From the IMG/VR virus record IMGVR_UViG_3300008265_000001: a stretch of DNA of 64,000 bases; one strand, written 5' to 3'. This DNA is from a virus. How positions within the stretch are numbered: position 1 is the first letter of the stretch; each line of letters begins with the position of its first letter. Positions 18,415-64,000 of the stretch are shown here, one piece after another. The notes beneath the pieces are model-generated. The model saw only the letters and a list, made by a program, of their open reading frames with translations, was not told the origin of the DNA and did not search any database. The translations under genes were made by a program, and so were the position numbers.

Positions 18415-18837
18415 ATGCAACACTTTGCAAACTTTGAGCTAAGCCCAGAGCAAAAAAGAACTGCTGATAGTCTGAACTACCTTAGACAAAATGACCCAGA
18501 AGAATTTAATAGGGTAAAAACTGCTGGGCAAGCCGTCAGAAAAAGAAATCAGAATGTAAATGTGCCGATTATCCAAAAACAAGTAGCTGCTGGCGGAGAT
18601 GCGAAGGAGTTGTTTGCAAATAACCGCCAAAACTACAATCAGACGTTTACGAAAGCTACTAATGCAAATCAAGCGGCTGGGGCTATGGGCAAAATTGGCA
18701 ACACAGCTAAGCGTTGGGGTGGTAAGGTTGCTGGGCTTGGAGGAGCCGCAGTTACAGCCTCGATGCTGCTTCCTATGGCATCTTCCCTGCTTCCTTTTGG
18801 TAAAGGTCAGACTAAAGAAGAAAACCAACCCTATTAG
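18415..18837 (+). CDS. MQHFANF-leader protein with Gly/Ala-rich hydrophobic C-terminus
   Basis: 140 aa, on the opposite strand to its neighbours. A TATAAT-like box lies at ~18378. The N-terminus MQHFANF is shared with 60601, 62157 and 63943. Confidence 0.6.
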   Translation: MQHFANFELSPEQKRTADSLNYLRQNDPEEFNRVKTAGQAVRKRNQNVNVPIIQKQVAAGGDAKELFANNRQNYNQTFTKATNANQAAGAMGKIGNTAKRWGGKVAGLGGAAVTASMLLPMASSLLPFGKGQTKEENQPY

Positions 18838-18843
18838 ATTAAC

Positions 18844-20016
18844 CTAAGCCGAATAATCTGACATCTCTCTAATGACAGAAGAGATTAAATTTTGATTGTC
18901 AAAATAAAAACATTCAGACTTACCATCGAAAGTCTTTTTAGGAGTATATTTGTATTTCTTGAAGATTCGCTGAAGATGGTTCTCTAATTTAAATATTAGG
19001 CTAGGGTCGTCACTAGATATAACGTGGATAAGTTCGTATGCATAAGGCATATCGTTTTTAAAACGTCTCTTTATGGTGTTGTAAGTCCTCCCTACCTTAT
19101 AGAAGTTTTCTTCTTCGCCCGATAATTTTACAAAATATACTTTGTAACTATCGAAATATTTAGAGGATTTTGCATTTTTCTTCCAAGCTATTAATCCCCA
19201 ACCATGAGGGTTTTCATAGTTAGCTATATTAGTTTTATCTCTACCACAAACACTACAACCAGTACCTTGCAAATGACCACTTGGCAAGATTTTAAAGTCT
19301 CCGTGTTTAGGGCAGGTGACAGTTATCTTATCGGCTGCGGTTGTATAGATTAACTTATCGTAACTATAAAAGCTTGAGTGTTTTTCATTTGCCCTTTCTA
19401 TAAACTCTTGTCGCGTATATCTTTTCGCTTCCCCAACTCTCTCACCCCCACATTGGGGGCAACCATCTCCATCCAAATGCCCCATAGCAGATTGTAGAAA
19501 ATCTCCATGTTTAAGGCAAGTAATCTTACTTTTAGAGCCATAAAGAGTATATTCAAACCTATCGTAGCTATAAGTATTTCCGTGTATTTCTCTAGCCTTG
19601 TTTATAAAGTACAGGTTTTTATTGGTAGCACTTCTAAACGACGGGGAAGCTCCTCTTAGTATTGAGGCTGGCAACATTTCATGTAATCCATACTTATCTT
19701 TTAATGTTATTGGGCTATAAAGTCCTTTGCAATTAGACAAGAATTTATAGGGGAAGTTAGGGAATTTATTATATAAGCGTTTTAAAAATTCTTCGTGACT
19801 AACCCTACGTTTAGCTGCTGTCGCTTCGCAACCGCATTTATTACAACCCTCTCCCTGCATATGACCACTAGGCATCTGCTCAAATAAACCGTGAATCGGA
19901 CAAATTATTTTTACGGGAAAGGTACTAGATATGTACTCAGACAAAGAGTAGTCATATTTGTTACTATGACTTTTATTAGACCTCTCAATAAATGATGTGG
20001 TTGTTACTTTTGGCAT
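18844..20016 (-). CDS. T5orf172/GIY-YIG-like endonuclease with three Zn-ribbon repeats
   Basis: Three repeats of C(P/L).HG.F...GH..G.GC..CG. The C-terminal FYKVGRTYNTIKRRF...YELIH is T5orf172-like. Confidence 0.6.
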   Translation of the reverse strand: MPKVTTTSFIERSNKSHSNKYDYSLSEYISSTFPVKIICPIHGLFEQMPSGHMQGEGCNKCGCEATAAKRRVSHEEFLKRLYNKFPNFPYKFLSNCKGLYSPITLKDKYGLHEMLPASILRGASPSFRSATNKNLYFINKAREIHGNTYSYDRFEYTLYGSKSKITCLKHGDFLQSAMGHLDGDGCPQCGGERVGEAKRYTRQEFIERANEKHSSFYSYDKLIYTTAADKITVTCPKHGDFKILPSGHLQGTGCSVCGRDKTNIANYENPHGWGLIAWKKNAKSSKYFDSYKVYFVKLSGEEENFYKVGRTYNTIKRRFKNDMPYAYELIHVISSDDPSLIFKLENHLQRIFKKYKYTPKKTFDGKSECFYFDNQNLISSVIREMSDYSA

Positions 20017-20204
20017 ATTGGCAGTATTAGTTTTAGTAGCCTAGTTATACTAACATACAAATACGTCAGCATGATTTTACCAAACCTCATGAGCTTAATG
20101 CCCCAGAAGCCTCAACCTGAACAAGAACCTCCTTACTAAGCGCTTGGCTCCGTATCGTAGGGATATGGCTTCTTTTACAAAAACCTCTGAAGTTGTTTTC
20201 ATAC

Positions 20205-24791: not shown

Positions 24792-26439
24792 TACTCTCCT
24801 CAGTAATAACCGAACTTTCTACAGCAACTACATTACCAGCAATACCATCGATTAACATCTCCTCTAGGACATACTCTGTCCCAGCTTCATCTACGACCGT
24901 GTAGGTAACATCGCGCAGACTTGCTTTCTCGCTTCTTGAAGTTACGGTGAAATCTTCGCCATTGTGGGATACAACATCACCAACTTGATATAAGAACGAA
25001 GTTGTCAGTTGCTTCAGTCGCTCACGCTCCTCGTCAGAAAAGAGAAGTTTGAGGGCAGCTTTGCGACGTTCGGTAGTCCAATCATGCGTTAAGTTGTAGA
25101 GAGCGCGTTTGTCCTTGCACAGCATTGCGTTATGTGCGTCAAGAACCGCAGGGGAGTATTGCTTGGCAGCTTTCTCAGGCTCAACCATCCAAAGTGACTC
25201 AGAGGGCATAACATAAGTCATTTGAGTGCCATCATGAACTGCAATAATTGTCTGGTTTTCAGTTAAATATCCCAAACTCTGCTTGACTTCAAATGTGCCT
25301 CCAAAAGATAGTAGGTCTTTCACGATATACGCTTTGCCATGATTCGCAGCAAAATGTCTAAGTAGTTTTCCAGTGAGTTCATGATTAGAATCAGCACTCT
25401 CAGATAGCACTTCAAGCCCGTCTAGCCCGTTTTCCAATTTAACCATGTTGTATTCGATTGTCATTGGCTTACCTTGCCTTGGAAGCGTTGTTAGGGTAAG
25501 TGGGGAGTTGGTATCTTTGTTGTAGTCTTCTTTTTTAGTCTTGAAAAGGGCAATAATGCCATCACTATTAGATGAAATTGAGGTTGAACCACTCAGAGCG
25601 TTGACCAAACTACCTTTTTGACCGTTTTTAGCTCCTTCTTTCGATAAATGGTGAATCACAACCCCGCAAGTATCTGTCTGCGTGAAAACTTGCTTCAATT
25701 TAGCTACAATTTTACCGAACTCACTAGAATTTTCTGAAAACTCGCTGTTAGCTGTTGAAGCTCGAAGACTGTCGATGATAACAAGTGTGGGCGAATACTC
25801 CATTATTCTCTTTTGCAAGTATGGAATCTCAATCGTCGCATCAAAAATTCTCTCGACTACTAAGGCATCAGGGTCAAAGTTGACTAGTAAGCTAGTTCCT
25901 TTATCATTCTTGTTACCAAACCCAGCCATGTAGACTCTGCTGGCAATAGTTTTTCTGTTTTCTTCCAATTGCCAATAAAGTACGCGACCTTTTTTAACTG
26001 GAAGACCTAAAAAGCGTCCAGAAATTGCGAACGAATAAGCTAGTTGGTATGCTAGGAGCGACTTTCCGCATTTTGGCTCAGCACCGAAGATGTACATACC
26101 GCCAGCTTGAAGGAGATTAGGAATAAGCCACTGGTCGGAGGGGTCGTAGCTCTCAAGTATTTTTTTGAGGTTCATGCTGCGTTCAAATACTGGAGTAGGA
26201 TTCATCAGTTCTTGAATGTCAGCACTGATGTTTTTAGGCTCGAAACCAAGAAGAGGATACCACTTAGAGGCTATCTTGTTGCGGAGTAACCTCAAAGCTT
26301 GTTTTTTGTTCTCAACCCCCTCTTCCTCCATGAACTTGACAAACCCTCGAAGGTCTTGAGCATACTCTGCCAATAATGCTTTGTGGTTATCAAGTGTGAA
26401 ATCAATTTTCTCTAACCCAAGGCTTTCTGTGTATTGCAT
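24775..26439 (-). CDS. replicative helicase (RepA/AAA_25-like ATPase)
   Basis: Walker A GAEPKCGKS and Walker B LVIIDSL. It lies downstream of, and overlaps, the primase gene. Confidence 0.75.
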   Translation of the reverse strand: MQYTESLGLEKIDFTLDNHKALLAEYAQDLRGFVKFMEEEGVENKKQALRLLRNKIASKWYPLLGFEPKNISADIQELMNPTPVFERSMNLKKILESYDPSDQWLIPNLLQAGGMYIFGAEPKCGKSLLAYQLAYSFAISGRFLGLPVKKGRVLYWQLEENRKTIASRVYMAGFGNKNDKGTSLLVNFDPDALVVERIFDATIEIPYLQKRIMEYSPTLVIIDSLRASTANSEFSENSSEFGKIVAKLKQVFTQTDTCGVVIHHLSKEGAKNGQKGSLVNALSGSTSISSNSDGIIALFKTKKEDYNKDTNSPLTLTTLPRQGKPMTIEYNMVKLENGLDGLEVLSESADSNHELTGKLLRHFAANHGKAYIVKDLLSFGGTFEVKQSLGYLTENQTIIAVHDGTQMTYVMPSESLWMVEPEKAAKQYSPAVLDAHNAMLCKDKRALYNLTHDWTTERRKAALKLLFSDEERERLKQLTTSFLYQVGDVVSHNGEDFTVTSRSEKASLRDVTYTVVDEAGTEYVLEEMLIDGIAGNVVAVESSVITEESIEDEF

Positions 26440-27389
26440 CCTTTTAATAATCCTAATAATTCTTCTCTAGTACAAATTTCCCAATTCTCAATTGCATCAG
26501 CCGCGTCGTAATTCTTTTCTGCACCTCGTCCGAGTAACTGCGCGATGTTGTAGCTTGATGCTGAGATGCCGCTTTTCCATGCTTCCTGTAAGAACTTCTG
26601 CGCTTTCTGTTTTCCAGTTTCATCATTGTCTTCCAAATAGATAATGTTTTTCACTTTGTAGGATAAGCATCTTAAGAACTTAGCTAGGTGTGACTGTTGG
26701 TAAACAAAAGAAGGAAAACTGACAGCATTTATACCAAGCTCTTGAAGATAAGAAGCGACCTTTTCCCCCTCGACAAAGACCACGAAAGCCGCCAAATAAC
26801 AAGACCTGTATACTGGGACATGATTGAACTTTGTAGGAACTTCATTTGACCATTCTCCATTGTCTTTTTTAATGCGAAAGTAAAAAAACTTTTTTTCATG
26901 TCTTGGGTCACACCTAATTAATTGAAAATCGTCGTAGGGATAGATAGTAAACTTTGTTTCATTCTCAAAGTAGGTAGACCAAGGTTTCTTGTAAGAGATA
27001 GAAGAGAAAAATTGGGTAACATCTATTTCACTAAGGTTAAGTGGCAGAGGCTTTATAATATCGCGAAGTTTTGGTATGCGTATCTGCCTTGGGGATGAGC
27101 TACGGCGAGGTCGAAACTCACCCTCTTGCAATTTGGCTGCAATCAGACTCGGTTGGTAGCCTGTGCCTTCTTTGCGGAGAAGATGACATTGACTGCTTGA
27201 ATAGCATGAGTATGCACCTTTCTTGGTTCCCTCCGCAACGATTTTAAGCTTATGTTCACCGCAAATAGGGCAATCTGCTGATATCCAACTCCTGTGGTTT
27301 GAGACATTCTCCAGCTTGTGCAAATAGGTTAGGATTTGAAAGTCATGCTGCTTTACTTCTATTCTGCCGTCAGAGTGTCTAATTCTCAT
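26412..27389 (-). CDS. DNA primase (Zn finger + Toprim)
   Basis: CPICGEH...C...C zinc motif, plus Toprim FVEGEKVA and LEDNDETG. Confidence 0.75.
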   Translation of the reverse strand: MRIRHSDGRIEVKQHDFQILTYLHKLENVSNHRSWISADCPICGEHKLKIVAEGTKKGAYSCYSSSQCHLLRKEGTGYQPSLIAAKLQEGEFRPRRSSSPRQIRIPKLRDIIKPLPLNLSEIDVTQFFSSISYKKPWSTYFENETKFTIYPYDDFQLIRCDPRHEKKFFYFRIKKDNGEWSNEVPTKFNHVPVYRSCYLAAFVVFVEGEKVASYLQELGINAVSFPSFVYQQSHLAKFLRCLSYKVKNIIYLEDNDETGKQKAQKFLQEAWKSGISASSYNIAQLLGRGAEKNYDAADAIENWEICTREELLGLLKGCNTQKALG

Positions 27390-29944: not shown

Positions 29945-29954
29945 GAAAGACTGA

Positions 29955-53032: not shown

Positions 53033-53486
53033 CAGCTATATCTTCTTCTGATAGACAGTAATCCTCACTGTTAACCACAGAGTAAGTGAATTGAATCAAT
53101 ACCTTTCTAGGGAATTTTCCAATAGTCTCTACTCGTAGTGTTATATCGCTGCTGGGTTGATGGCAGTAATCCAGAACTACAATTTGAGCATTGTATTTTT
53201 CGAGAAGCTTACGCAAGTCCCTGCGGATATCAGGCTTAGGCTCTTCTTTGGGGAGTTCAACAAACACGAACACATCATTACCGTTAGACAGGAAACCATG
53301 CTCTAGGCGATACTTGACTACGCCGTTGAACGTTAGCCAGTTGTACTTATCTGCAAGCTCCTGAGCGATGCGCGAAGCAGTATAGCCACCGTCTTGTTCG
53401 ACGCTGCGAGAGATAGCGGGAACACCTTCAGCTTTAGCGCGATACTTGTGAGTGATACTGGAATAGGAAACTTGAATTGCTTTCAT
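53025..53486 (-). CDS. hypothetical protein (C-terminal segment paralogous to 54052-54501)
   Basis: DLRKLLEKYNAQI...PSSD aligns with ALRKLLEEYNASI...PSSD. Confidence 0.6.
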   Translation of the reverse strand: MKAIQVSYSSITHKYRAKAEGVPAISRSVEQDGGYTASRIAQELADKYNWLTFNGVVKYRLEHGFLSNGNDVFVFVELPKEEPKPDIRRDLRKLLEKYNAQIVVLDYCHQPSSDITLRVETIGKFPRKVLIQFTYSVVNSEDYCLSEEDIADG

Positions 53487-53487
53487 T

Positions 53488-53694
53488 TTATTTAAAGTTT
53501 TGGTTATAGTGATAATTGTCTTGGGAGAAATCGAAAGCCTTGTTGGGTGAGTTGGTGAAGTTCAAGAAACCTTCTAGTTGATTAGTAGTGTCAAAGCGAT
53601 ATACAGGAGTGCAAGGCATGATTAGCTTCGCTGTACTCTTGCGTAATTGCTTGTCAGCTTCGATTTGAAAAGGGAGTCTAGTGTCTTGTGGCAT
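53488..53694 (-). CDS. hypothetical protein
   Basis: 68-aa ORF. Confidence 0.5.
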   Translation of the reverse strand: MPQDTRLPFQIEADKQLRKSTAKLIMPCTPVYRFDTTNQLEGFLNFTNSPNKAFDFSQDNYHYNQNFK

Positions 53695-53760
53695 AATTTT
53701 CTCCGAAAAAGTTGGCAGAAAGAGAGGGGAGTTAAGGGGTGTACCCTCTCAAGTAATGCT

Positions 53761-53934
53761 TCAAGATTTGATTAGCGGATGTGATGCTTCGATGTTCAGT
53801 GTCGATGCTTCGCGCAGTTCCCAAGCTGTGCGATGTGAATTGTTGCGGACGATAGCTACATCAGGTAAATTACCTGTTAGCTTTGCGTGTTCAAGGTTTA
53901 GAAATGCTTCTCTTGATGGTGAATGTTGAGACAT
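53761..53934 (-). CDS. small protein (57 aa)
   Basis: GGAG 9 nt upstream. MSQHSPSREAFLNLEHAKL... Confidence 0.4.
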   Translation of the reverse strand: MSQHSPSREAFLNLEHAKLTGNLPDVAIVRNNSHRTAWELREASTLNIEASHPLIKS

Positions 53935-54051
53935 GACGTAATGCTCCGTGATGTGAATGTTTTTGTTGTTGAGCGTTTGACTGCTCTTGTCTGTTCGTTA
54001 AGGGTAGCTTCTCACGAACAGATAGGAAAAGTCAACTGCGTAGGCTATTTC

Positions 54052-54501
54052 TTAGGGGATATCTTTTGGTGATGTAATAATTACTTCACAGTTATCGTCA
54101 ATTTCATGAATATCGATATACTCATTATTGAAAACTAGGATAGGCTTTTCTTGAATATCTGAGTTGTCTAGAATCTCAAGATGAGCATCGAAGACGCAAG
54201 CTAAATCAGAGCTAGGGTCACAAGTCCAATTAATAGACGCATTGTATTCTTCAAGAAGCTTACGCAAAGCCGTCTTGAAATTCTTTTTTCTGATATTTAG
54301 CATTTCTTTATTCCAAAACTTGATTTGTATATCGTTAATTTCGACTTGTTGGGCGACAGTTCCTTTGTAGCCCCAAAGTTTGCCCCCTTTTCTTTGGCAG
54401 ACAGGACACTCTAGATAAGCGTAAGGCATAGTTCGATTCACAAAAACATCTATGCCTCTCTGCACAATTGGTTCAGTGTTGCAACAATGGGTTATAGACA
54501 T
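54052..54501 (-). CDS. hypothetical Cys-containing protein
   Basis: 149 aa. CxxC at LECPVCQRKG. Paralogous segment with 53025-53486. Confidence 0.6.
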   Translation of the reverse strand: MSITHCCNTEPIVQRGIDVFVNRTMPYAYLECPVCQRKGGKLWGYKGTVAQQVEINDIQIKFWNKEMLNIRKKNFKTALRKLLEEYNASINWTCDPSSDLACVFDAHLEILDNSDIQEKPILVFNNEYIDIHEIDDNCEVIITSPKDIP

Positions 54502-54905
54502 TAATCAATTTTCCTTGCGAATTTTGCACCAGACTTCGACAAACGTTCGATATTGTCTAGAAAACGATTGGCACTTTCTTCATCATCAAAGTAGCGCCCA
54601 GAATGAAAATCAACAAAATCTTTTGTGATGTGACATACAATTGGATTGACTGTACTGTTACTCTCACGCAAGCAAACGAAGTCAGGTGTCGATAAATCGC
54701 GCACCACGACACGAATACACTTTGGCTGTATATTCTCAAGCCAAAAGCGATATTGTGTCTTGACAGCTTCAGGATGTGGCAATTCTGCGATGTGCTTTTT
54801 ATTGCCATGCTGAAAATCTACAGGAAGCGAAGCTAGAAATATATCTAAATTGTTGATGAAGCTAGCTAAAGTGTAGGGTTCTGTTGTGTTGTTATATGTT
54901 GCCAT
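54501..54905 (-). CDS. hypothetical protein
   Basis: Start trimmed to the ATG at 54905 (MATYNNTTEP). Confidence 0.55.
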   Translation of the reverse strand: MATYNNTTEPYTLASFINNLDIFLASLPVDFQHGNKKHIAELPHPEAVKTQYRFWLENIQPKCIRVVVRDLSTPDFVCLRESNSTVNPIVCHITKDFVDFHSGRYFDDEESANRFLDNIERLSKSGAKFARKID

Positions 54906-54963
54906 GATTTTAATCTCTAATAGTTTATCAATGCCCCGTATAGCCGATAGGTCAGCACCAAAA

Positions 54964-55482
54964 CTAGAATACGATTTTTTGGGCTGCAAATTCCCCTGTG
55001 TAATGCCTTACAGCAGCTTGTAAGACAATCTCAGAAAAGAGAATTTTGTCCAAGATAGGGAATATCTCAAGCGTAGGGACGTTTTCATGTTTCCACAAGT
55101 AATCGAACAAATCATCTTTTGCTTTCTGGTAAGCTTCAAATTCACTATGCAAGCTAAACCCAAGTTCAGAACGTCCAGACTCAAAATGATGTCTGTAATC
55201 ATGGACAGCACGAAACTTCTGGTTGGTAGCTTCATCCCACAAAGGATGCTCATTGAATAGCGAGAAAATGAATACATGATTGTTTTGAGCGATGTCATCA
55301 AACAGCGCTTTACTGTTTTCATAGCTGTCTGCTTGTTCAGTTAACTCAACTTTCAAGCCCTTGGCAACAATGGCATCATATTCATGATTAATCCATTTTG
55401 TCAAAATGTCCCCTGTAAGTTCAGGCAAGTTTGGGGTTTGGTCAACACCGTCTAGATATCTTTGTGCTAATGCTTCTAACAT
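54964..55482 (-). CDS. hypothetical protein
   Basis: 172-aa ORF with a GGAG SD. Confidence 0.6.
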   Translation of the reverse strand: MLEALAQRYLDGVDQTPNLPELTGDILTKWINHEYDAIVAKGLKVELTEQADSYENSKALFDDIAQNNHVFIFSLFNEHPLWDEATNQKFRAVHDYRHHFESGRSELGFSLHSEFEAYQKAKDDLFDYLWKHENVPTLEIFPILDKILFSEIVLQAAVRHYTGEFAAQKIVF

Positions 55483-55588
55483 CTTTTTTTTATAGCTCCA
55501 ATTTAGGGTTAACGAGTAGTGTGAATACTCTTAGCTGTGCAATAGCTTACACTACACAGCTAGGAATAATCAACGATATGTTTCAGGT

Positions 55589-55933
55589 CTATAGCACCGT
55601 GTTAATATCAGGGTATTCTACATAAGCCCAAAAATAATCACCATCATACGAATCTAAAAAAGACCATGTAGAATCTGTATGGTAGATAACACCTTTATGG
55701 AGCGAATTAGCTGATGCAAGGTCAGCAAGAAAATCGATTTTCTCTTGTTCACTGAAACCTTTAGATAAAGTCAATACACGGTCAGGGGTGTATACATACT
55801 CACCAGTTTCCCAACTGCCCTTATAACTAGCTTGAACTTTAGCGGCTATAATTCCGAATTTCTTGATAAGTTCTAGAGTAGGGAAGATAAATTGTGAATT
55901 GTAATTTCTATCAATGTCAAAATGTTTCAGCAT
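55589..55933 (-). CDS. hypothetical protein
   Basis: 114-aa ORF. Confidence 0.6.
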   Translation of the reverse strand: MLKHFDIDRNYNSQFIFPTLELIKKFGIIAAKVQASYKGSWETGEYVYTPDRVLTLSKGFSEQEKIDFLADLASANSLHKGVIYHTDSTWSFLDSYDGDYFWAYVEYPDINTVL

Positions 55934-55937
55934 ATTT

Positions 55938-56618
55938 TTATACCAGATTCAAATCAAATTTAAGTTGCACAGGCTTAGGAATGCCGTAGACTTTAGCACA
56001 CCAAATCATAGCTTGCAATTGGTGGCTTAGCAATCCCTTTTCCCTAGCAATGCGGTTGAAGACTACTTCAAATTCACGATATGCCGCCTTAGTGAAACTA
56101 GCAGAACCCACAATTTCAGGTACAAAGATTTGTCCCATGTGAGAGTCTAGAGTACAACCCGTCTCAACTTTAGGGTAAAACCCGTTCAGAAAGAAATGGG
56201 ATGTTTTGGGCGCATTCAAAATCTTCAAGATATTGGTTTCTAAAAGCTCATCCTGCGGCAGTGAAAGCACTGCTAGAGACTTTCTCAAGTTCAGGGAGAA
56301 CAAACACCTAATACCAGAGTTGTAGAGCGTCTCACAGTCATTTATAACTGTTTGCGTCAACTCACATAACAACAGAGCGAACTCTTTGTTTTTTTCCCAG
56401 CTTGTAGAGGGACTAAGGCAAGAGATTACACCGCACCACTGCAAGAGCGAAAATTTGGGGTTTACGCTATGGCAGAATTTTGCAGTTTCGTGAAATTCTG
56501 TAGAATACCAGTCTTTGCATTCTGGATAATACCTGATTGCCAGATTGTAGTAATAGTCAACACGTTTTCTAATGACAGATTCATTGAGATGCTTTAATGT
56601 TACAGAGGTTTTTTTCAC
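55938..56618 (-). CDS. hypothetical protein (GTG start, no SD)
   Basis: 226-aa ORF. A class-2 motif abuts the start codon. Confidence 0.6.
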   Translation of the reverse strand: MKKTSVTLKHLNESVIRKRVDYYYNLAIRYYPECKDWYSTEFHETAKFCHSVNPKFSLLQWCGVISCLSPSTSWEKNKEFALLLCELTQTVINDCETLYNSGIRCLFSLNLRKSLAVLSLPQDELLETNILKILNAPKTSHFFLNGFYPKVETGCTLDSHMGQIFVPEIVGSASFTKAAYREFEVVFNRIAREKGLLSHQLQAMIWCAKVYGIPKPVQLKFDLNLV

Positions 56619-56724
56619 AACTATCTAGCCTATACAGACTAGCCTAAAGGATAGTAGAGACATTCAACAGAATGAATGCTCTTAATGGGATAGTCTTGCA
56701 CTATCCGCATAGGAGAACTCATTA

Positions 56725-56892
56725 TTAAAATTCTTTCTTTTTCATTACAGATAGAACCGTCTCAAACGTCTCTACCTTTGTTTCAAGATTCCGAATTTTG
56801 TCATCTTTTTGCATACCAGAAATAAACAGATTCAAGGCTACAAAGCTAGGAGCAACAGCGCCGAATAGGGCAGCTCCAATTAGAGTTCCCAT
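56725..56892 (-). CDS. small membrane protein (55 aa)
   Basis: MGTLIGAALFGAVAPSFVALNLFISG followed by a charged tail. TAATG overlap with the upstream gene. Confidence 0.45.
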   Translation of the reverse strand: MGTLIGAALFGAVAPSFVALNLFISGMQKDDKIRNLETKVETFETVLSVMKKKEF

Positions 56893-57197
56893 TACGCATC
56901 CCCCCTAATAAATTTGGGGCGTGAATTCACAGAAAGAAGCATTACAGCTTCTTGGTGGAATTGCTTAGCAAGCCATCCTGCAAGGTGTTTTGCTTGGCTG
57001 TCAGTAATACCAAACACTTCAAAGCGAATTGTATTTTCTGGTATACCTTGCCAATAACCTTTCCCTTCATAGACCGAGAAAGAATTGCAGTCTAGTGTTT
57101 TGAGACATAGAGCGAAATAGTCTACAGCCCTAGTAACGTCTATAGCGTCAACTGTATCGCCAACATTGCGACCGAGTGTTACTTGATGTGTTTGCAT
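56892..57197 (-). CDS. hypothetical protein
   Basis: 101-aa ORF. A class-2 motif ends 6 nt before the ATG. Confidence 0.6.
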   Translation of the reverse strand: MQTHQVTLGRNVGDTVDAIDVTRAVDYFALCLKTLDCNSFSVYEGKGYWQGIPENTIRFEVFGITDSQAKHLAGWLAKQFHQEAVMLLSVNSRPKFIRGDA

Positions 57198-57325
57198 CGT
57201 ATCATCTAGCCTTATAGACTAGCCTTAGTAGGATGAAAGCGTAGCAAGTAATGTTATTAGCATCACTCCGCACGATAGCTAACGCTAGTTGCCAAGTTAT
57301 TAGCTACCGTAGGGAAAGATATTAA

Positions 57326-57766
57326 TTAATCAGGGAAAACAGGAGCTAAACCGTGTTCTATCCAATCATAGCCAGAAACATAATATCCAACTTCATCATC
57401 AGTACGTTGCTCTTGCAATTCTGCCCATGTACCATCTTTATACCAGATAATACATTTTTCAGTATCGTAACCAAGAACCTTTGGAAATTCATTCCTGTAC
57501 CATTCATGAGAATGTCTAGAAAAATCAGTGAATGCAAGATTAGCTTTAAGCTTTTCTAAAGTTTCTTCATTGAGTTCACTGATTTTGACAACAAACCTAC
57601 CACAATCATACCCTTTTGTAGAAATTACAGAATCAGGGTAAGGGAAACAATCTACAGGAACACTGTAAGATAATCTCACAGATAGCACTATTGAAGTAGC
57701 TTCAATACCTTCATCATTAGTTAGAGGGATGTAGATATCTTTCAACAAGCACTTAGTATTTGACAT
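57326..57766 (-). CDS. hypothetical protein
   Basis: 146-aa ORF. Confidence 0.6.
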   Translation of the reverse strand: MSNTKCLLKDIYIPLTNDEGIEATSIVLSVRLSYSVPVDCFPYPDSVISTKGYDCGRFVVKISELNEETLEKLKANLAFTDFSRHSHEWYRNEFPKVLGYDTEKCIIWYKDGTWAELQEQRTDDEVGYYVSGYDWIEHGLAPVFPD

Positions 57767-57926
57767 TTTTCTATCTTGCTAAAAAGCAAGCCGTAAAGGA
57801 TAGAATTTTTTTGGGGGAATTGGAAAAGTTGTATAGGGTAAATAACCCCTATGGGTACTCTACATAATGTTACAAGCTTTCCACTTGTACGGACTAGTGC
57901 TAGTCTTAGCTGTGCTGTCAGCTTAT

Positions 57927-58091
57927 TTATAATCGTTCTAGATGATTGATTGCTATTCTTATATAGCTATTAGCGTACTGTAGACTTTTCTCAGAATCTC
58001 TTTTACAGACATCATTAGGAAATTCGTTAATCTTAAAGTCAATTTCAGATATTAACTTTTCAATTCGCTTTAATTTTTCTAAATTACTCAT
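57927..58091 (-). CDS. small helical protein (54 aa)
   Basis: GGAG SD upstream. MSNLEKLKRIEKLISEIDF... It is flanked by a 27-nt imperfect inverted repeat. Confidence 0.45.
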   Translation of the reverse strand: MSNLEKLKRIEKLISEIDFKINEFPNDVCKRDSEKSLQYANSYIRIAINHLERL

Positions 58092-58326
58092 TGTCTTATC
58101 TCCTATGTTTTCAAGTGATGCCTTACGGTAGTTAGCTTTACAGCACAGTTAGGACTAGACTAGACTTAACCAAGTTACAGTAGCAAGGATAGTAATAGAT
58201 TCTAAAATTGTAGAATCTCTAGCAGTATTACAGCTATATAGCCTATAGCTTGCCTGAACAGTCGTGGTTAAGTAGTTTTTGTCTCAGTTACTTCTTTCCA
58301 TACTCTTTGCTGCGATGTAGTTGATT

Positions 58327-58476
58327 TTACATACTTTGTATCGTATCGTAGTTATCCCAATAATCTTGATTGTATATACCGAATTTATCCGCTAAGTATT
58401 TTGCATACTCTATAGCGGTTTCTAATCTCTCTTGAGCTAATTTTCTGGTTAGTTCAATTCGTTTTTGTTCAGTCAT
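58327..58476 (-). CDS. small protein (49 aa)
   Basis: MTEQKRIELTRKLAQERLETAIEYAKYL... This is the first gene of the minus-strand array. Confidence 0.4.
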   Translation of the reverse strand: MTEQKRIELTRKLAQERLETAIEYAKYLADKFGIYNQDYWDNYDTIQSM

Positions 58477-59826
58477 TATCTTATTTTCCTTATAGTAGCG
58501 AGTGAATTACATCGCAGTAAGGAATACAGAAAGAAGTAACGCGATTATTTAAGGTCATCGCAGTGTTTTGTTATAGCGCCCTAATCAGTATTACAAGCGC
58601 TGATAGTTTCAGTACTCTATCAAACTAACCGCTATCTAAAGATATCTTAAATTACTTTAGAATCATAGCTTTTATGCTTAAGTGTTATATCTTAGTGACT
58701 TGCTATCATCACGACACGCCCTTACAGCCCTTTACAGGCATACAGCATTTTTCAACTGTCGGAATTATGTGTATTCAATTTTCAAGGTACTAGAGATGCG
58801 ACCGCTTGGCTTGCGTCTTACCGCTTGCTTTGCTTATCTCGTATCTCATGTAAATTAAGTTATCAGGTTATCTCTAGAATGTAAAGCCCCCTCGCAGTAT
58901 GTAAACGGATAAAAGTGGTTAAAAGTCTTACAGTGTATAGAGAAAAAAGTTTGAAAATTCTTTTTAGTCCTGCAATTTTCGTATTAACATAATATAGCGT
59001 GTATGTATTTCTATGCTTGTATGTGTATTCGCTAGAGATGTATATATGCTTAGCAGCTACCTCTAGATTGACCTGTAAGACTTGTTTACATACATTCAGG
59101 AGTATTTGTACCCTAGCAATTTTGCTAGTCTTAAAATCGATTTTAGAGCTATGCAACAAATTGCATATAGTAAGTATCGTTAAATAATCATTAGAGTGAA
59201 ACATATATAATAATCTAAAAGGATGAGTGATTTAATATCAATCATCTCAAATGATTATACAGTAGGATATACACGTTATACGGTATCATATAATACAATC
59301 TGATGCTGATATATAAACGAATAAGCTGATATTTGTCTTAGGGAAGTAGATGAGTTAAGAGATAGAATGTGAAGTTTGTGCGAGAGATAGAACGGATTTG
59401 TTCGTGTGCTTCTCGTATATACGAGAATTATACGAGAGAAATAATATGCCCCACTTGCTTCGACTAAGTGTAAATCTGACACTAACATATAGTTGCAACT
59501 GCAATCATCTACACATATACCAACGAGTTTGCGCCATCACAGCATTGTTTGATAGTACTCGAACATTCATACATACAGTGAAATGCACAAAGATTGTCCT
59601 CCAGAAGAAGAAGTAGAAGTATATAGGTTAAGTTTATTCGATTAGCAACTCGACTGTGTAAGGGTTTCAGCCTCAACATCGATTAGCAAAACAGCTTATT
59701 CGATTAGCAAATTCTTCATAACTAACCCAAACAATTATGAAACTGCCCTATTTGATTAGCAACATAATCGCAAAAATACTGCTAACAGGTATGCTAATAT
59801 AATAATAGTAAGCTACTTAAATAAAT
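58477..59826. other. ORF-poor AT-rich divergent control region (candidate early promoters, origin or genome-end region)
   Basis: 1.35 kb with no convincing ORF and many short palindromes and direct repeats. Gene polarity switches here. Confidence 0.6.
59640..59798 (+). repeat. iteron/operator array: 4 direct GATTAGCAA plus 2 inverted ATTAGCA/GTTAGCA cores
   Basis: Direct copies start at 59640, 59681, 59702 and 59754. Inverted copies lie at 59780-59786 and 59792-59798. The array ends 29 nt before the ATG at 59827. Confidence 0.65.
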
Positions 59827-60474
59827 ATGGACGAGACTTCGGCGCTTGTAGCCCAACTAGAAAAAAGCCTGTGGCGTAATCCCACAGATGAAGAAGGGGT
59901 TTTAGGACTTTTCAGTGACTCAGATAAACCATTAGCCAGTGTGCTTCTTGGTGGTGTTGTAAGTATGCAAAAACAACTGTCAGAAATAAAATCCCTGATA
60001 ACAGCTATTGCAAGTAACAAGACCAATTCAGTAACACCCACAGAGCTAGGTATGTTCTTCATCATGGACGCTTACAAGTACCTTATCGAAGACTTTACCC
60101 TTATAGGCGACAAAGTGGCTTACAGGGGAGAAATATGCGGTCAGAGTGATTCGGTAATTTTGCAGTTATCTATACGTCTCGAAGACTTCTTTGGTTCTAA
60201 GGATGTCCACTTTGCAAATCTGTTCAAGGGATTGCGCCGAGCCTTAACCAAACGTGATAACGTGCATCAAGACTATAAATTACTATTGCAGAATGAGTTG
60301 GACGAATACTTCAGCCAACATAAAAAAGCTAAGCGAATTAAGTTCAAGGTCATAGCAGACATCTTCTCTGAACTACCTGATGTCACAGAACAAAAACTAA
60401 AAGTGTGGCTTGAAGAATTGGGATACAATCCTAAACCAGACGTTAACCGAGTATTATGGTACACCAATAAATAA
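59827..60474 (+). CDS. hypothetical protein (first gene of the plus-strand block)
   Basis: 215-aa ORF directly downstream of the iteron array. Confidence 0.65.
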   Translation: MDETSALVAQLEKSLWRNPTDEEGVLGLFSDSDKPLASVLLGGVVSMQKQLSEIKSLITAIASNKTNSVTPTELGMFFIMDAYKYLIEDFTLIGDKVAYRGEICGQSDSVILQLSIRLEDFFGSKDVHFANLFKGLRRALTKRDNVHQDYKLLLQNELDEYFSQHKKAKRIKFKVIADIFSELPDVTEQKLKVWLEELGYNPKPDVNRVLWYTNK

Positions 60475-60600
60475 AAATATGAAAAAGCTAATATTAGCGA
60501 CCCTAAGTAGTAATCCGCAAGTTCTATACCCCGACTCCCGCCTACATAGTCGAGTGCGATACAATAAACATTGGAGACACTTGTTCTAACTAACACCCTT

Positions 60601-61512
60601 ATGCAACACTTCGCAGATTTTAGTAACGCAGCTAGAAAAACATTTACAAGAACAAAACAAGCTACCCTGCTTGGTGGTCTAGGTAATGTCAAGGAAGGTG
60701 CGCCAGTACCTAAAGAACAAAGGCGAACAGTTACAAGAGAAGTGCCTACACCTCCCCCTAAATACAAAGGACTTCTATCCTTCCTTAACCCTAAGAAACC
60801 TGCTACACCTGCAACCTACACAGCAACTGAAAAATTTACACCTGAAAACCCTTTAAATGATAGGATAGGTTATGTAGATGCAATACAAACTGCCAGAAGA
60901 GGTAGTACTAACCCCATAAAATCCAACAGCTATATCGACAGACAGGGTTACATGAACACACCTCAAGATAACACTGTGCTGGCGGGAACCATAGATAAAT
61001 TAAGAAAGACAGCCAGCGTAGACCCTAAAAATGAATATGGAGCTTTATTGTATAAAGATGACCCTAGAGTCACTTTAAAAACCACACCTATAACGGGAGG
61101 TGGTAGTCATTCAATAAAGCTCTATAGTGGAAACACAGAACAAGATAAGAAATCGTTGGTCAATATCCATACTCACCCACCATACGCAAAAACAATTGCA
61201 GGTGTCACACCCTCACCTAGAGATTTTCAAATGGATGCTAATCAAAGATACGATACTCCTAATACAACATCTTTGATTTTAGCAAATAACCCTATAACTG
61301 GTCAAAATCATATCACACAATATAAAACTAGCAAACACCCCTCTTCAAGAATTGCTAAGCATTTAGATGAAAAAATGTATTCAGATGCCAATCACCAAAC
61401 TTATGCTGAGACTGATAGACAGGATTTCCTAAACACTTTTAGAAATTACAGGCAAAATGTCAAAAATCTTGGCGGAGACTATAAAGTAATTAGCAATAAA
61501 ACTAATCAGTAA
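60601..61512 (+). CDS. MQHFADF-leader protein with C-terminal JAB/MPN (RadC-like) metalloprotease-type motif
   Basis: The track start at 60571 is TTG and the ATG is at 60601. The motif is NEYGALLY...NIHTHPPYAKTIAGVTPSPRD, i.e. E...HxH...SxxD. Confidence 0.55.
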   Translation: MQHFADFSNAARKTFTRTKQATLLGGLGNVKEGAPVPKEQRRTVTREVPTPPPKYKGLLSFLNPKKPATPATYTATEKFTPENPLNDRIGYVDAIQTARRGSTNPIKSNSYIDRQGYMNTPQDNTVLAGTIDKLRKTASVDPKNEYGALLYKDDPRVTLKTTPITGGGSHSIKLYSGNTEQDKKSLVNIHTHPPYAKTIAGVTPSPRDFQMDANQRYDTPNTTSLILANNPITGQNHITQYKTSKHPSSRIAKHLDEKMYSDANHQTYAETDRQDFLNTFRNYRQNVKNLGGDYKVISNKTNQ

Positions 61513-61521
61513 TATAAACAA

Positions 61522-61737
61522 ATGAACACTGACGACACCACCACCCCCACTACAACCAAGAAGCCCTCGACCAAGCTGCCTGACATCTTTCCTCCCAAAC
61601 TAACCGACCTCAAAGGACTGACGGGCAAAAAAGCTGACAAGAAGATGCTGAAAAGTATCGCAAAGCCGCCCCTTATGCCCAAGGCGTTGCAAAAGAAAAA
61701 TGCCAGTGCAGAACTCATCGAACGTATTAAAAGTTAG
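61522..61737 (+). CDS. small Lys/Pro/Thr-rich basic protein
   Basis: 71-aa ORF. Confidence 0.5.
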   Translation: MNTDDTTTPTTTKKPSTKLPDIFPPKLTDLKGLTGKKADKKMLKSIAKPPLMPKALQKKNASAELIERIKS

Positions 61738-61785
61738 TGGCAAGCGAATACTGGAACAATAATGACCAACTAGAGGAGTCTATCA

Positions 61786-62133
61786 GTGAATAAGCTCCCA
61801 TTAGAAAAAGAAACGAGAAATAAAGTTGCGAATTTCTTTAAATCTCAAGGTTACGTTGTGCAGATGGAATACAAGACCCCCTACGGTTTTATAGATATCC
61901 TTCTCAAAGAATATAAACCAAGCGGTGAAGTCATTTATCACCTAATTGAATGTAAAAGAAAAAATGACAGCACAGCCATCAAAAATAGTATAGGACAACT
62001 CATCTGCTACGCTAAGCACTTCCCTAAATCTCAAGTGCAATTATATTTTTGCACCAGTTGTAAAAAACCTCTGTCTCAGGAATCACTCAGAATAATGCAA
62101 GCAAACCCCGACATCCTCTATAAGGTATTCTAG
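61786..62133 (+). CDS. minimal Mrr-cat / PD-(D/E)XK nuclease-like protein, paralog 1
   Basis: GTG start with a GAGGAG SD. GFIDILLKEY...HLIECKR...GQL..YA....LYFCTS. About 50% identical by eye to 63006-63362. Confidence 0.6.
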   Translation: MNKLPLEKETRNKVANFFKSQGYVVQMEYKTPYGFIDILLKEYKPSGEVIYHLIECKRKNDSTAIKNSIGQLICYAKHFPKSQVQLYFCTSCKKPLSQESLRIMQANPDILYKVF

Positions 62134-62156
62134 TAATATACAGAATAAATAAAATC

Positions 62157-62903
62157 ATGCAACATTTTGCCAATTTTATCCGCCTCAGTGACAAGAACAT
62201 CAATGCAGCCCGAAAGAAAATCACAGAGTTGCAACCTAACGGCTGGACAGAACTAAGCGGCTTCAAATCCGACAACACACCATCAGCACTGAAGCTACAC
62301 GATACACTTCAGCATAGGCTCATTGACAAACCCATATTCAAAGCAGCAACAGGCATAGACCCCAATACACTATTTCCTAGTGGCTCACCTCAACAAGCTA
62401 CCAAGATGATGCCGCTAGTTCAACAATCTCCCAGCATTTCAAGAGACAGGCGCAATGTCCTTAACGAAACTATCGAGAAGATGGTAGATGTAGGTACTTT
62501 CCCCAGCTACCGCAGCAGATTACCCGTAGATACTATGGAGTTACTACCTAACACCAAGTTCGACGCTGTGATGCCTTACATACGCAAGAAAGCTAAGCCA
62601 GCAGATAGGTTAGCTGCTGAGGCTATTAGCATGACATTCCTACCAACCAGCAGCAATGAAGAGTTTCGCAACATCTATCTCGACACAGCACAACGCGATA
62701 GCAGAATACGTGCAGCAATGAAAGAGCGACTACCCAAACTAGCGACCGAGAAATTGCAGCCTAATGCCAGTGCTGGTCAACGCTTAAGGGCTAAGCTCGA
62801 AGACAGAAAAAATTACAGCAAGCAATTTGACTGGACTAGAGACTTGAGCGCAAGGGAAGACCGACTCAACCAATATAGACAAACAGGACTAATGCCAAGA
62901 TGA
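62157..62903 (+). CDS. MQHFANF-leader protein
   Basis: 248-aa ORF. The N-terminus is MQHFANF...NINAARKKI. Confidence 0.6.
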   Translation: MQHFANFIRLSDKNINAARKKITELQPNGWTELSGFKSDNTPSALKLHDTLQHRLIDKPIFKAATGIDPNTLFPSGSPQQATKMMPLVQQSPSISRDRRNVLNETIEKMVDVGTFPSYRSRLPVDTMELLPNTKFDAVMPYIRKKAKPADRLAAEAISMTFLPTSSNEEFRNIYLDTAQRDSRIRAAMKERLPKLATEKLQPNASAGQRLRAKLEDRKNYSKQFDWTRDLSAREDRLNQYRQTGLMPR

Positions 62904-63016
62904 TGCACTTTACTTCTTTTCTGCCAACGAACGTAGTGAGTGACTTCAGCAACAGCGCTCGTAAGTCATTCACACGACAAAAGCAAGCCACACTACTTGG
63001 TCAAAATGTCAAGTAA
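62900..63016 (+). CDS. 38-aa mini-ORF: interrupted or truncated MQHF leader
   Basis: MMHFTSFLPTNVVSDFSNSARKSFTRQKQATLLGQNVK. Its tail matches residues 6-24 of the 60601 protein. It has an ATGA overlap upstream and overlaps the next start. Confidence 0.35.
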   Translation: MMHFTSFLPTNVVSDFSNSARKSFTRQKQATLLGQNVK

Positions 63017-63362
63017 AAAAACTAAAGTCCCCCTCGAAAAAGTTACCAGAGAGAAAGTGGCGAGTTTCATGAGAGCAAGCGGATTTGTTGTCCAACAAGA
63101 AGTGGTCGTGCCAACTGGTCGTATCGATATTTTGGTCAAAGAGTACAAACCAAACGGGGAAATTACCAACTACATTATCGAGTGTAAACGTTATGGAGAC
63201 AGCAATTCAATCAAAAATGCAGTGGGTCAGTTGAGAACTTACGCCACCCACTATGGTAAAAATACTAAATTGTATATATGTACCAGCGACCCCACACCCT
63301 TAAACAAGGAAGCCCGAAAAGTTCTATCTTTGAATCCCGATATCCTCTACAAAGTATTCTAA
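63006..63362 (+). CDS. minimal Mrr-cat / PD-(D/E)XK nuclease-like protein, paralog 2
   Basis: The ATG at 63006 (MSSKKTKVPLEK) aligns with the paralog 1 start. GRIDILVKEY...YIIECKR. The C-terminus NPDILYKVF is identical in both. Confidence 0.6.
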   Translation: MSSKKTKVPLEKVTREKVASFMRASGFVVQQEVVVPTGRIDILVKEYKPNGEITNYIIECKRYGDSNSIKNAVGQLRTYATHYGKNTKLYICTSDPTPLNKEARKVLSLNPDILYKVF

Positions 63363-63366
63363 CTAT

Positions 63367-64000
63367 ATGAACACTTCCTCATTCGCTCGTATCCGTAACG
63401 CCAAAGCACTTCTCCTCACATCAGACAAGCGTGTAATGCACTTCCCTGCCACAAACAAGGTACGCATCGACAACATACTTCCTGACAATCCCAACTATAA
63501 AGCAGCAGCCAGACGCGCCAGCGTGAAAGAATATGAGAACGCAAGTAAAGCAGCCTCTACGACAGGGTTAGTTCCACCAGTGCAAAACTACCGTGAACGA
63601 GGGAACATGACCTCCTACACGCAAGACTATGCTGGTAAGCCATTACCTGACAAACTAGAAGGAATCTCACCAAAGGAACAATATAAAATTGGTAGTCAAG
63701 TAGGGCGTATGCAAAATCGCCTATACGAGAAAGGTATGGGTCACATGGATATACATGAAGGCAATGTAGTTAGACCAAACCCAAATAAAAAACAACTAAA
63801 ATTGGTGGATAATGCTTCAGTAAGACCTATTGAAGTTGAATATGATACAGGCGAGATGAAAAATCCATACTCTCGTCACTGGTTGGGTAAGCCATTTATG
63901 ACAGGCTATAATAGCAGAATAAACTTTTCGCAACATAAACAGATGCAACATTTCGCTCACTTCGGTTCGCAGGATGCAAATTTCGCACCATTTACAGTAA
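63367..64000 (+). CDS. protein with kinase-like catalytic-loop motif and an internal MQHFAHF (partial, runs off the window)
   Basis: Frame open from the ATG at 63367 to the window end. GMGHMDIHEGNVV...KLVDNAS resembles the HxDxxxxN...D of protein-kinase-like folds. MQHFAHF lies in frame at 63943. Confidence 0.5.
   Translation, partial: MNTSSFARIRNAKALLLTSDKRVMHFPATNKVRIDNILPDNPNYKAAARRASVKEYENASKAASTTGLVPPVQNYRERGNMTSYTQDYAGKPLPDKLEGISPKEQYKIGSQVGRMQNRLYEKGMGHMDIHEGNVVRPNPNKKQLKLVDNASVRPIEVEYDTGEMKNPYSRHWLGKPFMTGYNSRINFSQHKQMQHFAHFGSQDANFAPFTV

Follow-up and report, generated by a model that had tools for sequence, protein, structure and literature searches.

What does it mean that otherwise unrelated phage proteins share the same seven residues? 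The question is raised by a stretch of viral DNA of 64,000 nucleotides (IMG/VR virus record IMGVR_UViG_3300008265_000001; hereafter 'the window', always at its full length), in which a first-pass annotation, made from the sequence alone, had noticed the heptapeptide MQHFA[NDH]F on several proteins and had suggested a targeting or processing leader. All four copies are borne out by six-frame translation: three begin open reading frames (ORFs), namely MQHFANF at 18415 (140 amino acids, aa), MQHFADF at 60601 (303 aa) and MQHFANF at 62157 (248 aa), and the fourth, MQHFAHF at 63943, lies 203 codons into the ORF that starts at 63367. The best explanation, to which we assign a probability of about 0.6, is that this 'tag' represents, in the version specific to this clade, a short peptide for virion incorporation (cargo loading), an analogue, but not a homologue, of the capsid-targeting sequence (CTS) of phage T4.

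Occurrence of the tag in the window and in the phage clade

Going by nucleotide identity, the window is a Pseudanabaena siphophage of the Pam2/PA-SR01 type. Its right-hand 24 kb is ~81% identical, over the conserved parts, to Pam2, a 142.9-kb siphovirus of Pseudanabaena from Lake Chaohu, and to PA-SR01 (137 kb); positions 50601-64000 (13.4 kb compared) are identical to a 137.9-kb Joint Genome Institute (JGI) metagenome contig, and the capsid protein gene lies outside the window. The tag genes sit on a few plus-strand islands amid mostly minus-strand replication and early genes, the plus strand being that of the structural genes.

The occurrence of the tag is non-random. The 12-nt back-translated pattern ATGCARCAYTTY is found five times in the window, compared with 0.13 expected, and none of 100 shuffles yielded five or more. 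The four copies differ at wobble positions, exactly in the 21-nt codon strings that the first-pass annotation quoted, and across 39 distinct copies from the clade the synonymous codons are thoroughly mixed (His: CAC 25, CAT 14; Phe4: TTT 19, TTC 20; Ala: GCA 15, GCT 9, GCC 8, GCG 2), so that conservation at the amino-acid level is upheld and selection acts on the peptide. The core of the tag is [M/F]-x-H-F-[A/T/V/S]-[N/D/H/S]-F. Residue 2 is invariably large (Q, K, E, R, I or M) and the initiator methionine should, for this reason, be kept, presumably, given the known specificity of methionine aminopeptidase. Two degenerate copies had been proposed as well: the one at 62900 is real, being the remnant of a paralogue of the 60601 family, and the one at 44389 is a chance match (44378-44389, minus strand, ATGCAGCATTTC) that reads MQHFLFH in a 27-codon ORF, lacks A-x-F and has no relatives.

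In Pam2, the tag begins gp37, gp39, gp41, gp42 and gp44 (the last from a GTG start, as MEHFANF), located between the 'tail protein' gp36 and the tail fibre gp43; further proteins that start with it are gp118, gp186 and gp187 (MIHFANF), and it lies inside the kinase gp189 and ends gp46 (NFQHFANF followed by the stop codon). When the entire Pam2 proteome is searched with the core [HFY]F[ATVS][NDHS][FY], those ten proteins are the only matches. PA-SR01 adds further cargo, namely a 121-aa protein (MKHFANF), a 159-aa protein (MEHFVNF) and an SNF2/DEAD-box helicase with an internal MEHFANF. Once the first 35 residues are trimmed, the tag-bearing proteins of the clade fall into at least 11 BLAST-separate families, and the downstream domains of the window proteins, as first noticed, are unrelated and form separate clusters.

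The sequence that follows the heptapeptide is specific to each family (GYVKQANKQLKRL; SNAARKxFTRxKQATLLG; FIRLSDKNINAAR; ALSPEQxxTADSLNYLRQ; ALGDTELGNLNRQ; or a glycine zipper). The second of these had been read as an additional motif shared by 60601 and 62900 with echoes in 62157 and in the 63367 ORF; it is indeed present in the first two, being the conserved N-terminal helix of the JAB-like family of 60601, and the echoes are weak. A glycine comes directly after the tag in about half of the copies, with no other conserved residue or cleavage-like consensus, and tandem repeats of the tag unit are common (MQHFTHF....ANF).

A degenerate 21-nt pattern, when scanned against IMG/VR, finds in-frame, ORF-initial copies in 13 contigs only, all from this phage group (guanine-cytosine fraction 0.39-0.42, several of them 142-146 kb long), the remainder being out-of-frame noise. 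Among the matches listed for metagenome contigs, nearly all are out-of-frame chance occurrences and only L148 belongs to the clade; among those listed for 185,579 cellular genomes, there are only scattered chance matches. The scans also brought up a short tandem repeat, KHFADFGK(I/N)R, in many unrelated contigs (L055, L065, L068, L069 and others, several from the human gut); it apparently lies outside long ORFs and is a chance match unrelated to the tag. No published description of the tag was found, and the Pam2 and PA-SR01 papers, examined on other matters, bear no sign of it.

The tag is not the strictly N-terminal leader that was first envisaged: it is internal in 46 of 46 kinases and stands at the extreme C-terminus of all seven gp46 homologues, which end in NFQHF[AV]NF or SFVHFANF before the stop codon. 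In the 46 kinase orthologues, the kinase domain closes with the invariant residues M193, H195, F196 and F199, beyond which the sequence is mosaic and switches among several glycine-zipper types. A fusion of a kinase gene with a glycine-zipper module accounts best for the internal copy at 63943, which would mark the junction as the retained head of the second module, because stand-alone glycine-zipper proteins of 116-141 aa (L033:5362, L037:5538, L167:4874), which cluster with the kinase C-terminus in BLAST, begin with the tag; the cleavage site or internal start suggested initially is a poorer fit. Kinase entries of ~200 aa, considered as possible gene fissions, are fragments at contig ends. 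In gp118, the copy homologous to the start of window 18415 is now internal (GVHFADF-ALTAEQQATADSLNYLRQ), and the new N-terminal extension again starts with the tag, as MQHFSNF. With conserved copies at N-terminal, C-terminal and internal sites alike, the tag has the character of a docking motif that tolerates different positions, and not that of a signal for secretion or a feature of translation initiation.

By inspection, a Sec, Tat or lipoprotein signal peptide was rejected, the tag being followed by polar or basic helices (SNAARKTFTRTKQ, IRLSDKNINAARKK, ELSPEQKRT) with no hydrophobic core and being found at C-termini too; a beta-clamp-binding motif was likewise rejected, the pattern appearing unlike the usual consensus. 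Pam2 also has a 20-codon ORF at 140746-140808 (L004:40746-40808), MQHFADYNSQIANKRCVPNE and stop, which overlaps the kinase start and joins the tag to the C-terminal tail of the gp42/gp187 family (ending in YNSQIHNKRYIPTE and stop); it looks like a recombination or deletion scar comparable to the window 62900 remnant.

In sister lineages, the tag is replaced. The SNAARKAFT...LLGG helix persists in more distant homologues of the JAB-like protein, in which the heptapeptide gives way to MYLLVDF, MYLMCDF, MYILADF, MLLLADF, MT[LI]FLLCDF or MRLSNYKNFANF, with the general form MY[LI]L[VIA]DF, and orthologues of the GKxNLxNxQK family in these lineages likewise carry replacement variants. Non-homologous neighbours share the local variant, as in L163:4361 (MIYLLVDFQKNEK at its start; 327 aa) and L161:4091 (MYILADFAKEEP; 75 aa), and L163:15158 (containing FLLYDMIDFGKINLKNIQKLQKLD), the orthologue of the clade's MQHFANFGKVNLQNLQKMQKLD protein, has the local variant too. 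Both the JAB-like protein (MTLFLLCDF) and a GKxNLxN-family member (IFLLCDILQNADFG) of L170 have the FLLCD form, and L163 contains five variant-tag copies compared with 0.18 expected. Recurrent across the lineage variants are Met1, a hydrophobic or aromatic residue at position 4, D or N at position 6 and Phe7, the last being invariant in the JAB-family alignment. The tag is thus exchanged on unrelated proteins together from one lineage to another, a pattern that would be expected if it co-evolved with a binding site specific to each lineage and that speaks for a partner of this kind. A tblastn search of isolated phages with the sister-lineage JAB protein matched Pam2 only; the sister lineages thus have no cultured member with proteomics.

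Tag proteins in purified virions

Mass spectrometry (MS) data for virions come from the relative Pam2 (Table S2 of PMC9382816), with particles purified by polyethylene glycol (PEG) and CsCl, in which 27 of the 191 ORFs were identified (PMC9382816). The tag proteins are strongly over-represented among them. Eight of the nine Pam2 proteins with an N-terminal or internal tag were detected, compared with 19 of the 182 other ORFs (Fisher p = 4.8e-7), and so was gp46, with its C-terminal tag. When only plus-strand ORFs are considered, the fractions are 8 of 9 and 17 of 63 (p = 6e-4), and size matching gives p = 0.0025. Within the plus-strand cluster gp183-189, the only detected proteins are the three tagged ones (186, 187 and 189); the untagged 183, 184 (a GIY-YIG nuclease), 185 and 188 (a PD-(D/E)XK nuclease) are not marked. 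gp118, a single plus-strand gene among replication genes, was detected as well. As regards the window, 62157 is the orthologue of gp186, the kinase is the orthologue of gp189 and 18415 belongs to the gp118 family, all three Pam2 proteins being present in virions.

The large tail proteins gp36, gp43 and gp45 were missed although the tag proteins were found, which suggests that the latter are probably not rare in the particle and are present in appreciable copy number. All the tag proteins are strongly basic, with a median isoelectric point (pI) of 9.8 compared with 5.8 for the other Pam2 ORFs (Mann-Whitney p = 1e-6). The idea of virion packaging, which the first-pass annotation had raised by analogy with T4, thus gains independent support from the presence of eight of the nine proteins, plus gp46, in CsCl-purified particles. 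The outcomes that the annotation had named as refuting its idea are not seen, given that these Pam2 proteins are in virions, that wobble divergence is extensive and that sister lineages have shared variants of their own.

Cargo domains and the tag loci

The tag-bearing genes of the window and the features next to them are collected in Table 1. Pfam searches with the four window tag proteins and PHROGs searches with ten tag proteins (four from the window, six from Pam2) found no family above threshold, and the same scans found no MuF domain.

Table 1. Tag-bearing genes and neighbouring features of the window
Feature	Coordinates	Strand	Description
Small hydrophobic-tail protein	18415-18837	+	140 aa; tag 18415-18435, then ELSPEQKRTADSLNYLRQ; Gly/Ala-rich hydrophobic C-terminal tail; pI 10.0
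Possible degenerate member	40247-40747	+	166 aa; begins MTDYKFMNSPLEADFAIGNLDRLLTRAK; without the H-F core; 'EADF + basic helix' as after the tag in gp41-/gp187-type proteins
JAB/MPN-like protein	60601-61512	+	303 aa; tag MQHFADF 60601-60621; helix SNAARKTFTRTKQATLLGG; H190-x-H192...S205-x-x-D208; pI 9.8
PD-(D/E)XK/Mrr-type nuclease gene	61786-62133	+	ends NPDILYKVF; Pfam PDDEXK_9, Mrr_cat
Near-palindromic element	62131-62145		TATTCTAGTAATATA, before 62157
Protein with a domain of no known function	62157-62903	+	248 aa; tag 62157-62177, then IRLSDKNINAARKK; pI 10.05; orthologue of Pam2 gp186
Remnant ORF	62900-63016	+	38 codons, MMHFTSFLPTNVVSDFSNSARKSFTRQKQATLLGQNVK and stop (MMHFTSF...DFSNSARKSFTRQKQATLLGQNVK and stop); degenerate tag and N-terminal helix of a JAB-family paralogue, body deleted
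PD-(D/E)XK/Mrr-type nuclease gene	63006-63362	+	paralogue of 61786-62133; ends NPDILYKVF; Pfam PDDEXK_9, Mrr_cat
Putative atypical protein kinase with glycine-zipper module	63367-64000	+	ORF runs past the window end; complete form 367 aa on the identical contig L159
Internal tag	63943-63963	+	MQHFAHF, then GSQDANF; at the junction of kinase domain and glycine-zipper module

The 18415 gene is a solitary plus-strand gene among minus-strand replication genes. Its ORF falls in one BLAST cluster with Pam2 gp118, PA-SR01 103596 and L021, and close orthologues in IMG/VR contigs L014 and L015 likewise begin with MQHFANF.

The cargo domain of 60601 is predicted to adopt a JAB/MPN fold and is, by resemblance, a JAB/MPN-like peptidase. 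H190, H192, S205 and D208 are nearly invariant in the family, with a spacing longer than is canonical for the metal-binding H-x-H...S-x-x-D, a motif that also calls for a Glu further upstream, and the N-terminal helix contains nine residues that are invariant in 14 sequences (F7, S8, N9, R12, T16, K19, A21, L23 and G25). In Pfam, several members give sub-threshold matches to DUF4329, Prok-JAB and RadC, one with a score of 15.3 compared with a cut-off of 28.6 bits and the others with weak E-values. An AlphaFold2 model of 60601 has a predicted local distance difference test score (pLDDT) of 68 and a predicted template-modelling score (pTM) of 0.68; residues 2-23 are helical, with residues 2-6 of low confidence, so that the tag lies at the free beginning of the N-terminal helix, outside the JAB fold. 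All 50 matches listed by Foldseek in the PDB are of the JAB1/MPN type or complexes containing such proteins (Prp8 Jab1, AMSH/Sst2, BRCC36, Rpn11 and CSN among them), with a best E-value of 3.6e-4 and TM-scores of only 0.2-0.4; structural matches in BFVD comprise JAB-domain proteins and several proteins of other phages labelled 'minor capsid protein'. Gene callers (P0001-P0004) take the ATG at 60601 as the start, not the upstream TTG at 60571. In L167 and L168, a full JAB-like gene (beginning with MKHFTNFSNSARKSFTRQKQASLLG; 194 aa) occupies the position of the 62900 remnant, between the gp186 homologue and the PD-(D/E)XK gene.

In the protein encoded at 62157, M1, H3, F4, A5 and F7 are invariant among nine orthologues; it has no match in Pfam or PHROGs and no detectable relatives beyond the clade. 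The 63367 ORF, previously listed as an unknown domain, is instead an atypical protein kinase, going by its catalytic residues: H126, D128 and N133 (H-x-D-x4-N) as well as D148-N149 are invariant in 46 orthologues. Sub-threshold Pfam matches of these 46 sequences are to ABC1 (24 of 46, best E-value 0.007), RIO1, Kdo and Pkinase, and to Gly-zipper families for the C-terminal module; for the Pam2 orthologue gp189, an HHpred match to casein kinase I at 0.94 was reported (PMC9382816). Searching PDB sequences with profiles of the kinase and of the JAB family gave no match, and an AlphaFold2 model of the full kinase, built from the 46-sequence alignment, was unusable (pLDDT 41).

The ORF at 40247 may belong to the tag family, an uncertain assignment made by resemblance alone. 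Its Pam2 orthologue, gp146, is a plus-strand gene amid minus-strand genes, has a pI of 9.8 and was detected in virions. Pam2 also encodes glycine-zipper or very basic proteins without the tag in the head-gene region: gp16 and gp17 (L002:16398-18931) and gp57 (L003:9748-10500). Two of them, gp17 and gp57, were detected in virions and have a pI above 10, and gp57 contains KYANF and SPFANF, resembling the second half of the tag. The PA-SR01 helicase (25081-26877, minus strand, L155) is encoded among head genes and has MEHFANF at residue 128; its N-terminal 127 residues hold two twin-arginine-like motifs, MNRRNFLKNLG and SRRQFLKNAAKP, which is odd for a phage helicase.

Two paralogous nuclease genes are interleaved with the tag genes of the window, and the matching plus-strand cluster of Pam2 has one PD-(D/E)XK gene and one GIY-YIG nuclease gene; these nucleases may be of the homing type, driving the shuffling of cassettes at this locus. 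A near-palindromic element, TATWCTARWAMTATA, ends 11-14 nt upstream of three tag genes, one in the window and two in Pam2 (37907-37921 and 39081-39095), and has no further copy in either sequence. A role as a promoter or operator particular to the phage is conceivable, and Pam2 encodes its own sigma factor, gp8; as a marker of the tag set it was rejected, since it precedes only three tag genes. A scan of 59000-64000 for sigma-70 promoters and terminators gave nothing above the shuffled expectation. Beyond the window, ~1.8 kb past its right end, the large terminase gene of this phage (L158/L159 14973-17087) encodes 704 aa with matches to Intein_splicing, PT-HINT and Hint as well as Terminase_6C; the terminase probably carries an intein, which the 561-aa TerL of Pam2 lacks.

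Possible roles of the tag

Under the explanation that we favour, the peptide would bind, while the particle is being assembled, to a component of the structure or of the assembly machinery that has a conserved site for it, most likely the procapsid interior or the scaffold, with a tail component as the alternative. The very basic proteins attached to it would in this way become part of the virion and, presumably, enter the next host together with the DNA. In the window, the cargo would comprise the JAB/MPN-like metallopeptidase (60601), the kinase with its glycine-zipper membrane module (63367), the Gly/Ala-tail protein (18415) and the protein of unknown fold (62157), which might act as early take-over, anti-defence or membrane-penetration factors. 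A further proposal, which we regard as tentative, is that the peptide, wherever it stands in the protein, attaches directly to the inner face of the HK97-fold capsid or to the portal, with no cleavable propeptide or carrier domain, and that peptide and receptor co-evolve by lineage (MQHFANF, MYLLVDF, FLLCDF).

Several points weigh against incorporation through the tag. The one undetected tag protein of Pam2, gp37, is the closest relative of window 60601. The proteomics amounts to a presence/absence column, without method details, peptide-level data, copy numbers or head/tail fractionation, and concerns a relative whose nucleotide sequence is ~81% identical across the 27% of a 24-kb query that matched. 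Late proteins that are basic might also accompany DNA-filled particles through purification. Four of the Pam2 tag genes, about half, are in the tail-gene block, which fits a place in the tail as well as in the head, and AlphaFold2 confidence at the tag is low. That the tag itself causes incorporation is our inference.

The T4 analogy is apt in form. The internal proteins of T4 are highly basic (PMC8442874), and a short N-terminal tag is shared by diverse, rapidly changing proteins that are packaged and delivered to the host (PMC3012670, PMC8442874). In both cases a tag (of ~7-10 residues and N-terminal in T4) is the sole feature common to diverse basic packaged proteins, and even the spacing of Met1, aromatic residue 4 and Phe7 is alike (MKTYQEF and MQHFANF), by analogy only. 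There is no homology, however: no PHROGs or Pfam family is held in common, the sequence is unlike MKTYQEFIAE apart from the 1/4/7 spacing, and the phage here is a cyanobacterial siphovirus whose head genes are unrelated to those of T4. In T4, the CTS stands only at the N-terminus, where the prohead protease cuts behind Glu10 to remove it, whereas the present tag is also internal or C-terminal and has no cleavage consensus; and the sufficiency of the CTS for packaging is proven, whereas the virion link of the tag comes from co-occurrence in Pam2. In phage P1, large enzymes of the DarB type are packaged in the head via an N-terminal signal of <30 residues and protect the incoming DNA (PMC9024508). 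The packaged helicase/methyltransferase-type protein of P1 is reminiscent of the tag-bearing SNF2/DEAD helicase of PA-SR01, but the Dar proteins have no consensus and are incorporated hierarchically (PMC9024508), whereas here one explicit heptapeptide serves all cargo. In MuF/SPP1 gp7-type systems, too, variable effector domains are delivered via a head-packaged carrier, and JAB-like folds occur in 'minor capsid protein' entries; the carrier there is a whole conserved domain fused to a polymorphic C-terminal effector, compared with the 7-residue tag here. Encapsulin targeting peptides are short and usually terminal, occur on unrelated cargo enzymes, at either terminus or in fusions, and dock to the inner surface of an HK97-fold shell. 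In its tolerance of position and its lack of a cleavage consensus, the tag seems closer to these peptides than to the T4 sequence, but it has no known resemblance to encapsulin motifs, and encapsulins neither package DNA nor eject cargo.

Docking might instead take place on the tail or baseplate, the tag anchoring accessory proteins as external or tail-lumen parts, in the manner of the N-terminal anchor peptides of multi-tailspike and depolymerase phages. This alternative, which differs from the favoured explanation only in the place of docking, is suggested by the location of gp37, gp39, gp41, gp42 and gp44, with gp46 following the 1630-aa gp45, by the detection of these tail-block proteins in virions (gp37 excepted) and by the fact that a terminal docking peptide usable at either end is typical of structural adaptors. 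We nevertheless consider it unlikely, given that the cargo is small and very basic and includes a kinase, a JAB-like peptidase and the PA-SR01 helicase, none of them fibrous or similar to receptor-binding proteins, that half of the tag genes are scattered beyond the tail block and that similar JAB-like folds occur on 'minor capsid proteins' of other phages. Cleavage of the motif by a phage or host protease, for example between F and A, is improbable. The model for it is Prp: the motif MLxx(D/N)LQ(F/L)F'A(S/H)KK is common to ribosomal protein L27 and to non-homologous virion proteins of staphylococcal phages, being present on capsid and scaffold in 80alpha-type phages and on the major tail protein in phi13 (PMC9405229, PMC5744158). 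The tag, like the Prp motif, is carried by non-homologous virion proteins, its Q-H-F-A resembles LQ(F/L)F'A, the internal copy of the kinase lies exactly between two modules, and the PA-SR01 authors' HHpred results list a Mu gpI-like protein, a possible prohead protease. But the Prp motif comprises 9-14 residues, 8-13 of them before the cut, and is removed by the host cysteine protease (DUF464) that processes L27. Here, by comparison, the 5-9 residues upstream of LQFF are absent, the tag beginning at Met1, so that an N-terminal F|A cut would strip just four residues; N/D/H-F follows in place of (S/H)KK, the sister variants (MYLLVDF) have no F-A pair, the C-terminal copy in gp46 leaves nothing to be released, and this phage infects a cyanobacterium. 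In Pam2, PA-SR01 and the window, tblastn with a Staphylococcus aureus Prp query detected no homologue, which is a weak test. A Pfam search of ten Pam2 head-region proteins for a prohead protease, scaffold or MuF domain gave only Laminin_G_3 in gp7, and the protease-processing leader first suggested finds no conserved cleavage motif after the tag, whose internal and C-terminal copies also speak against its removal being obligatory.

An intracellular role, in which the tag would be a linear motif that binds a host hub, a phage chaperone or a protease adaptor and thereby localizes, stabilizes or times the destruction of its carriers, with virion presence being incidental, we hold to be highly improbable. 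The tag is short, aromatic and position-tolerant, as many docking motifs are, and its lineage variants could track a host or phage partner outside the virion; yet nine of the ten motif proteins are in purified virions, the cellular genomes gave only the scattered chance matches described above, among the matches listed, and the pattern is, by inspection, unlike the clamp-binding or Sec/Tat ones. The least credible possibility is that the peptide has no function, the shared 5' end being a relic of paralogous duplication or a DNA-level linker for cassette shuffling. The tag does mark mosaic junctions, with the kinase C-termini switching type directly after it, there are recombination scars (the 62900 remnant and the 20-codon ORF of Pam2), and nuclease genes (PD-(D/E)XK and GIY-YIG) are interleaved with tag genes. 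However, no more than 21 nucleotides are shared, 5-6 of which vary freely at synonymous sites; homologous recombination would need more than that, and such variation is a hallmark of selection for the peptide. The motif also persists at C-terminal and internal sites, has arisen anew on the extension of gp118 and is exchanged as a whole set in the sister lineages; and the strong association with virion presence would be left unexplained. Any recombination at the tag may simply follow from the sequence being shared, without being what the sequence is for.

The principle of virion incorporation through a short tag is known from T4 and P1; new here are the sequence, the phage group, the positional freedom, the lineage-wise replacement and the set of cargo proteins. 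The T4 capsid-targeting principle would thus extend to an unrelated group of siphoviruses. Which proteins a virion carries is usually learnt by proteomics, and in this clade a tag of seven residues appears to predict carriage from sequence, providing a search key for the annotation of 'hypothetical' genes in related metagenomic phages and a candidate handle for loading foreign proteins into cyanophages engineered for bloom control. The set-wise change of the tag between sister lineages is a natural experiment for finding the receptor. The proteins that the tag selects, namely the kinase, the JAB/MPN-like peptidase and, in a relative, the helicase, along with glycine-zipper, membrane-active proteins, probably act at the very onset of infection in bloom-forming cyanobacteria. 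Should it bind the capsid or the portal directly, the tag would define a polymorphic arsenal of ejected effectors (kinase, JAMM isopeptidase, SNF2 helicase and glycine-zipper proteins) in an uncharacterized group of cyanophages.

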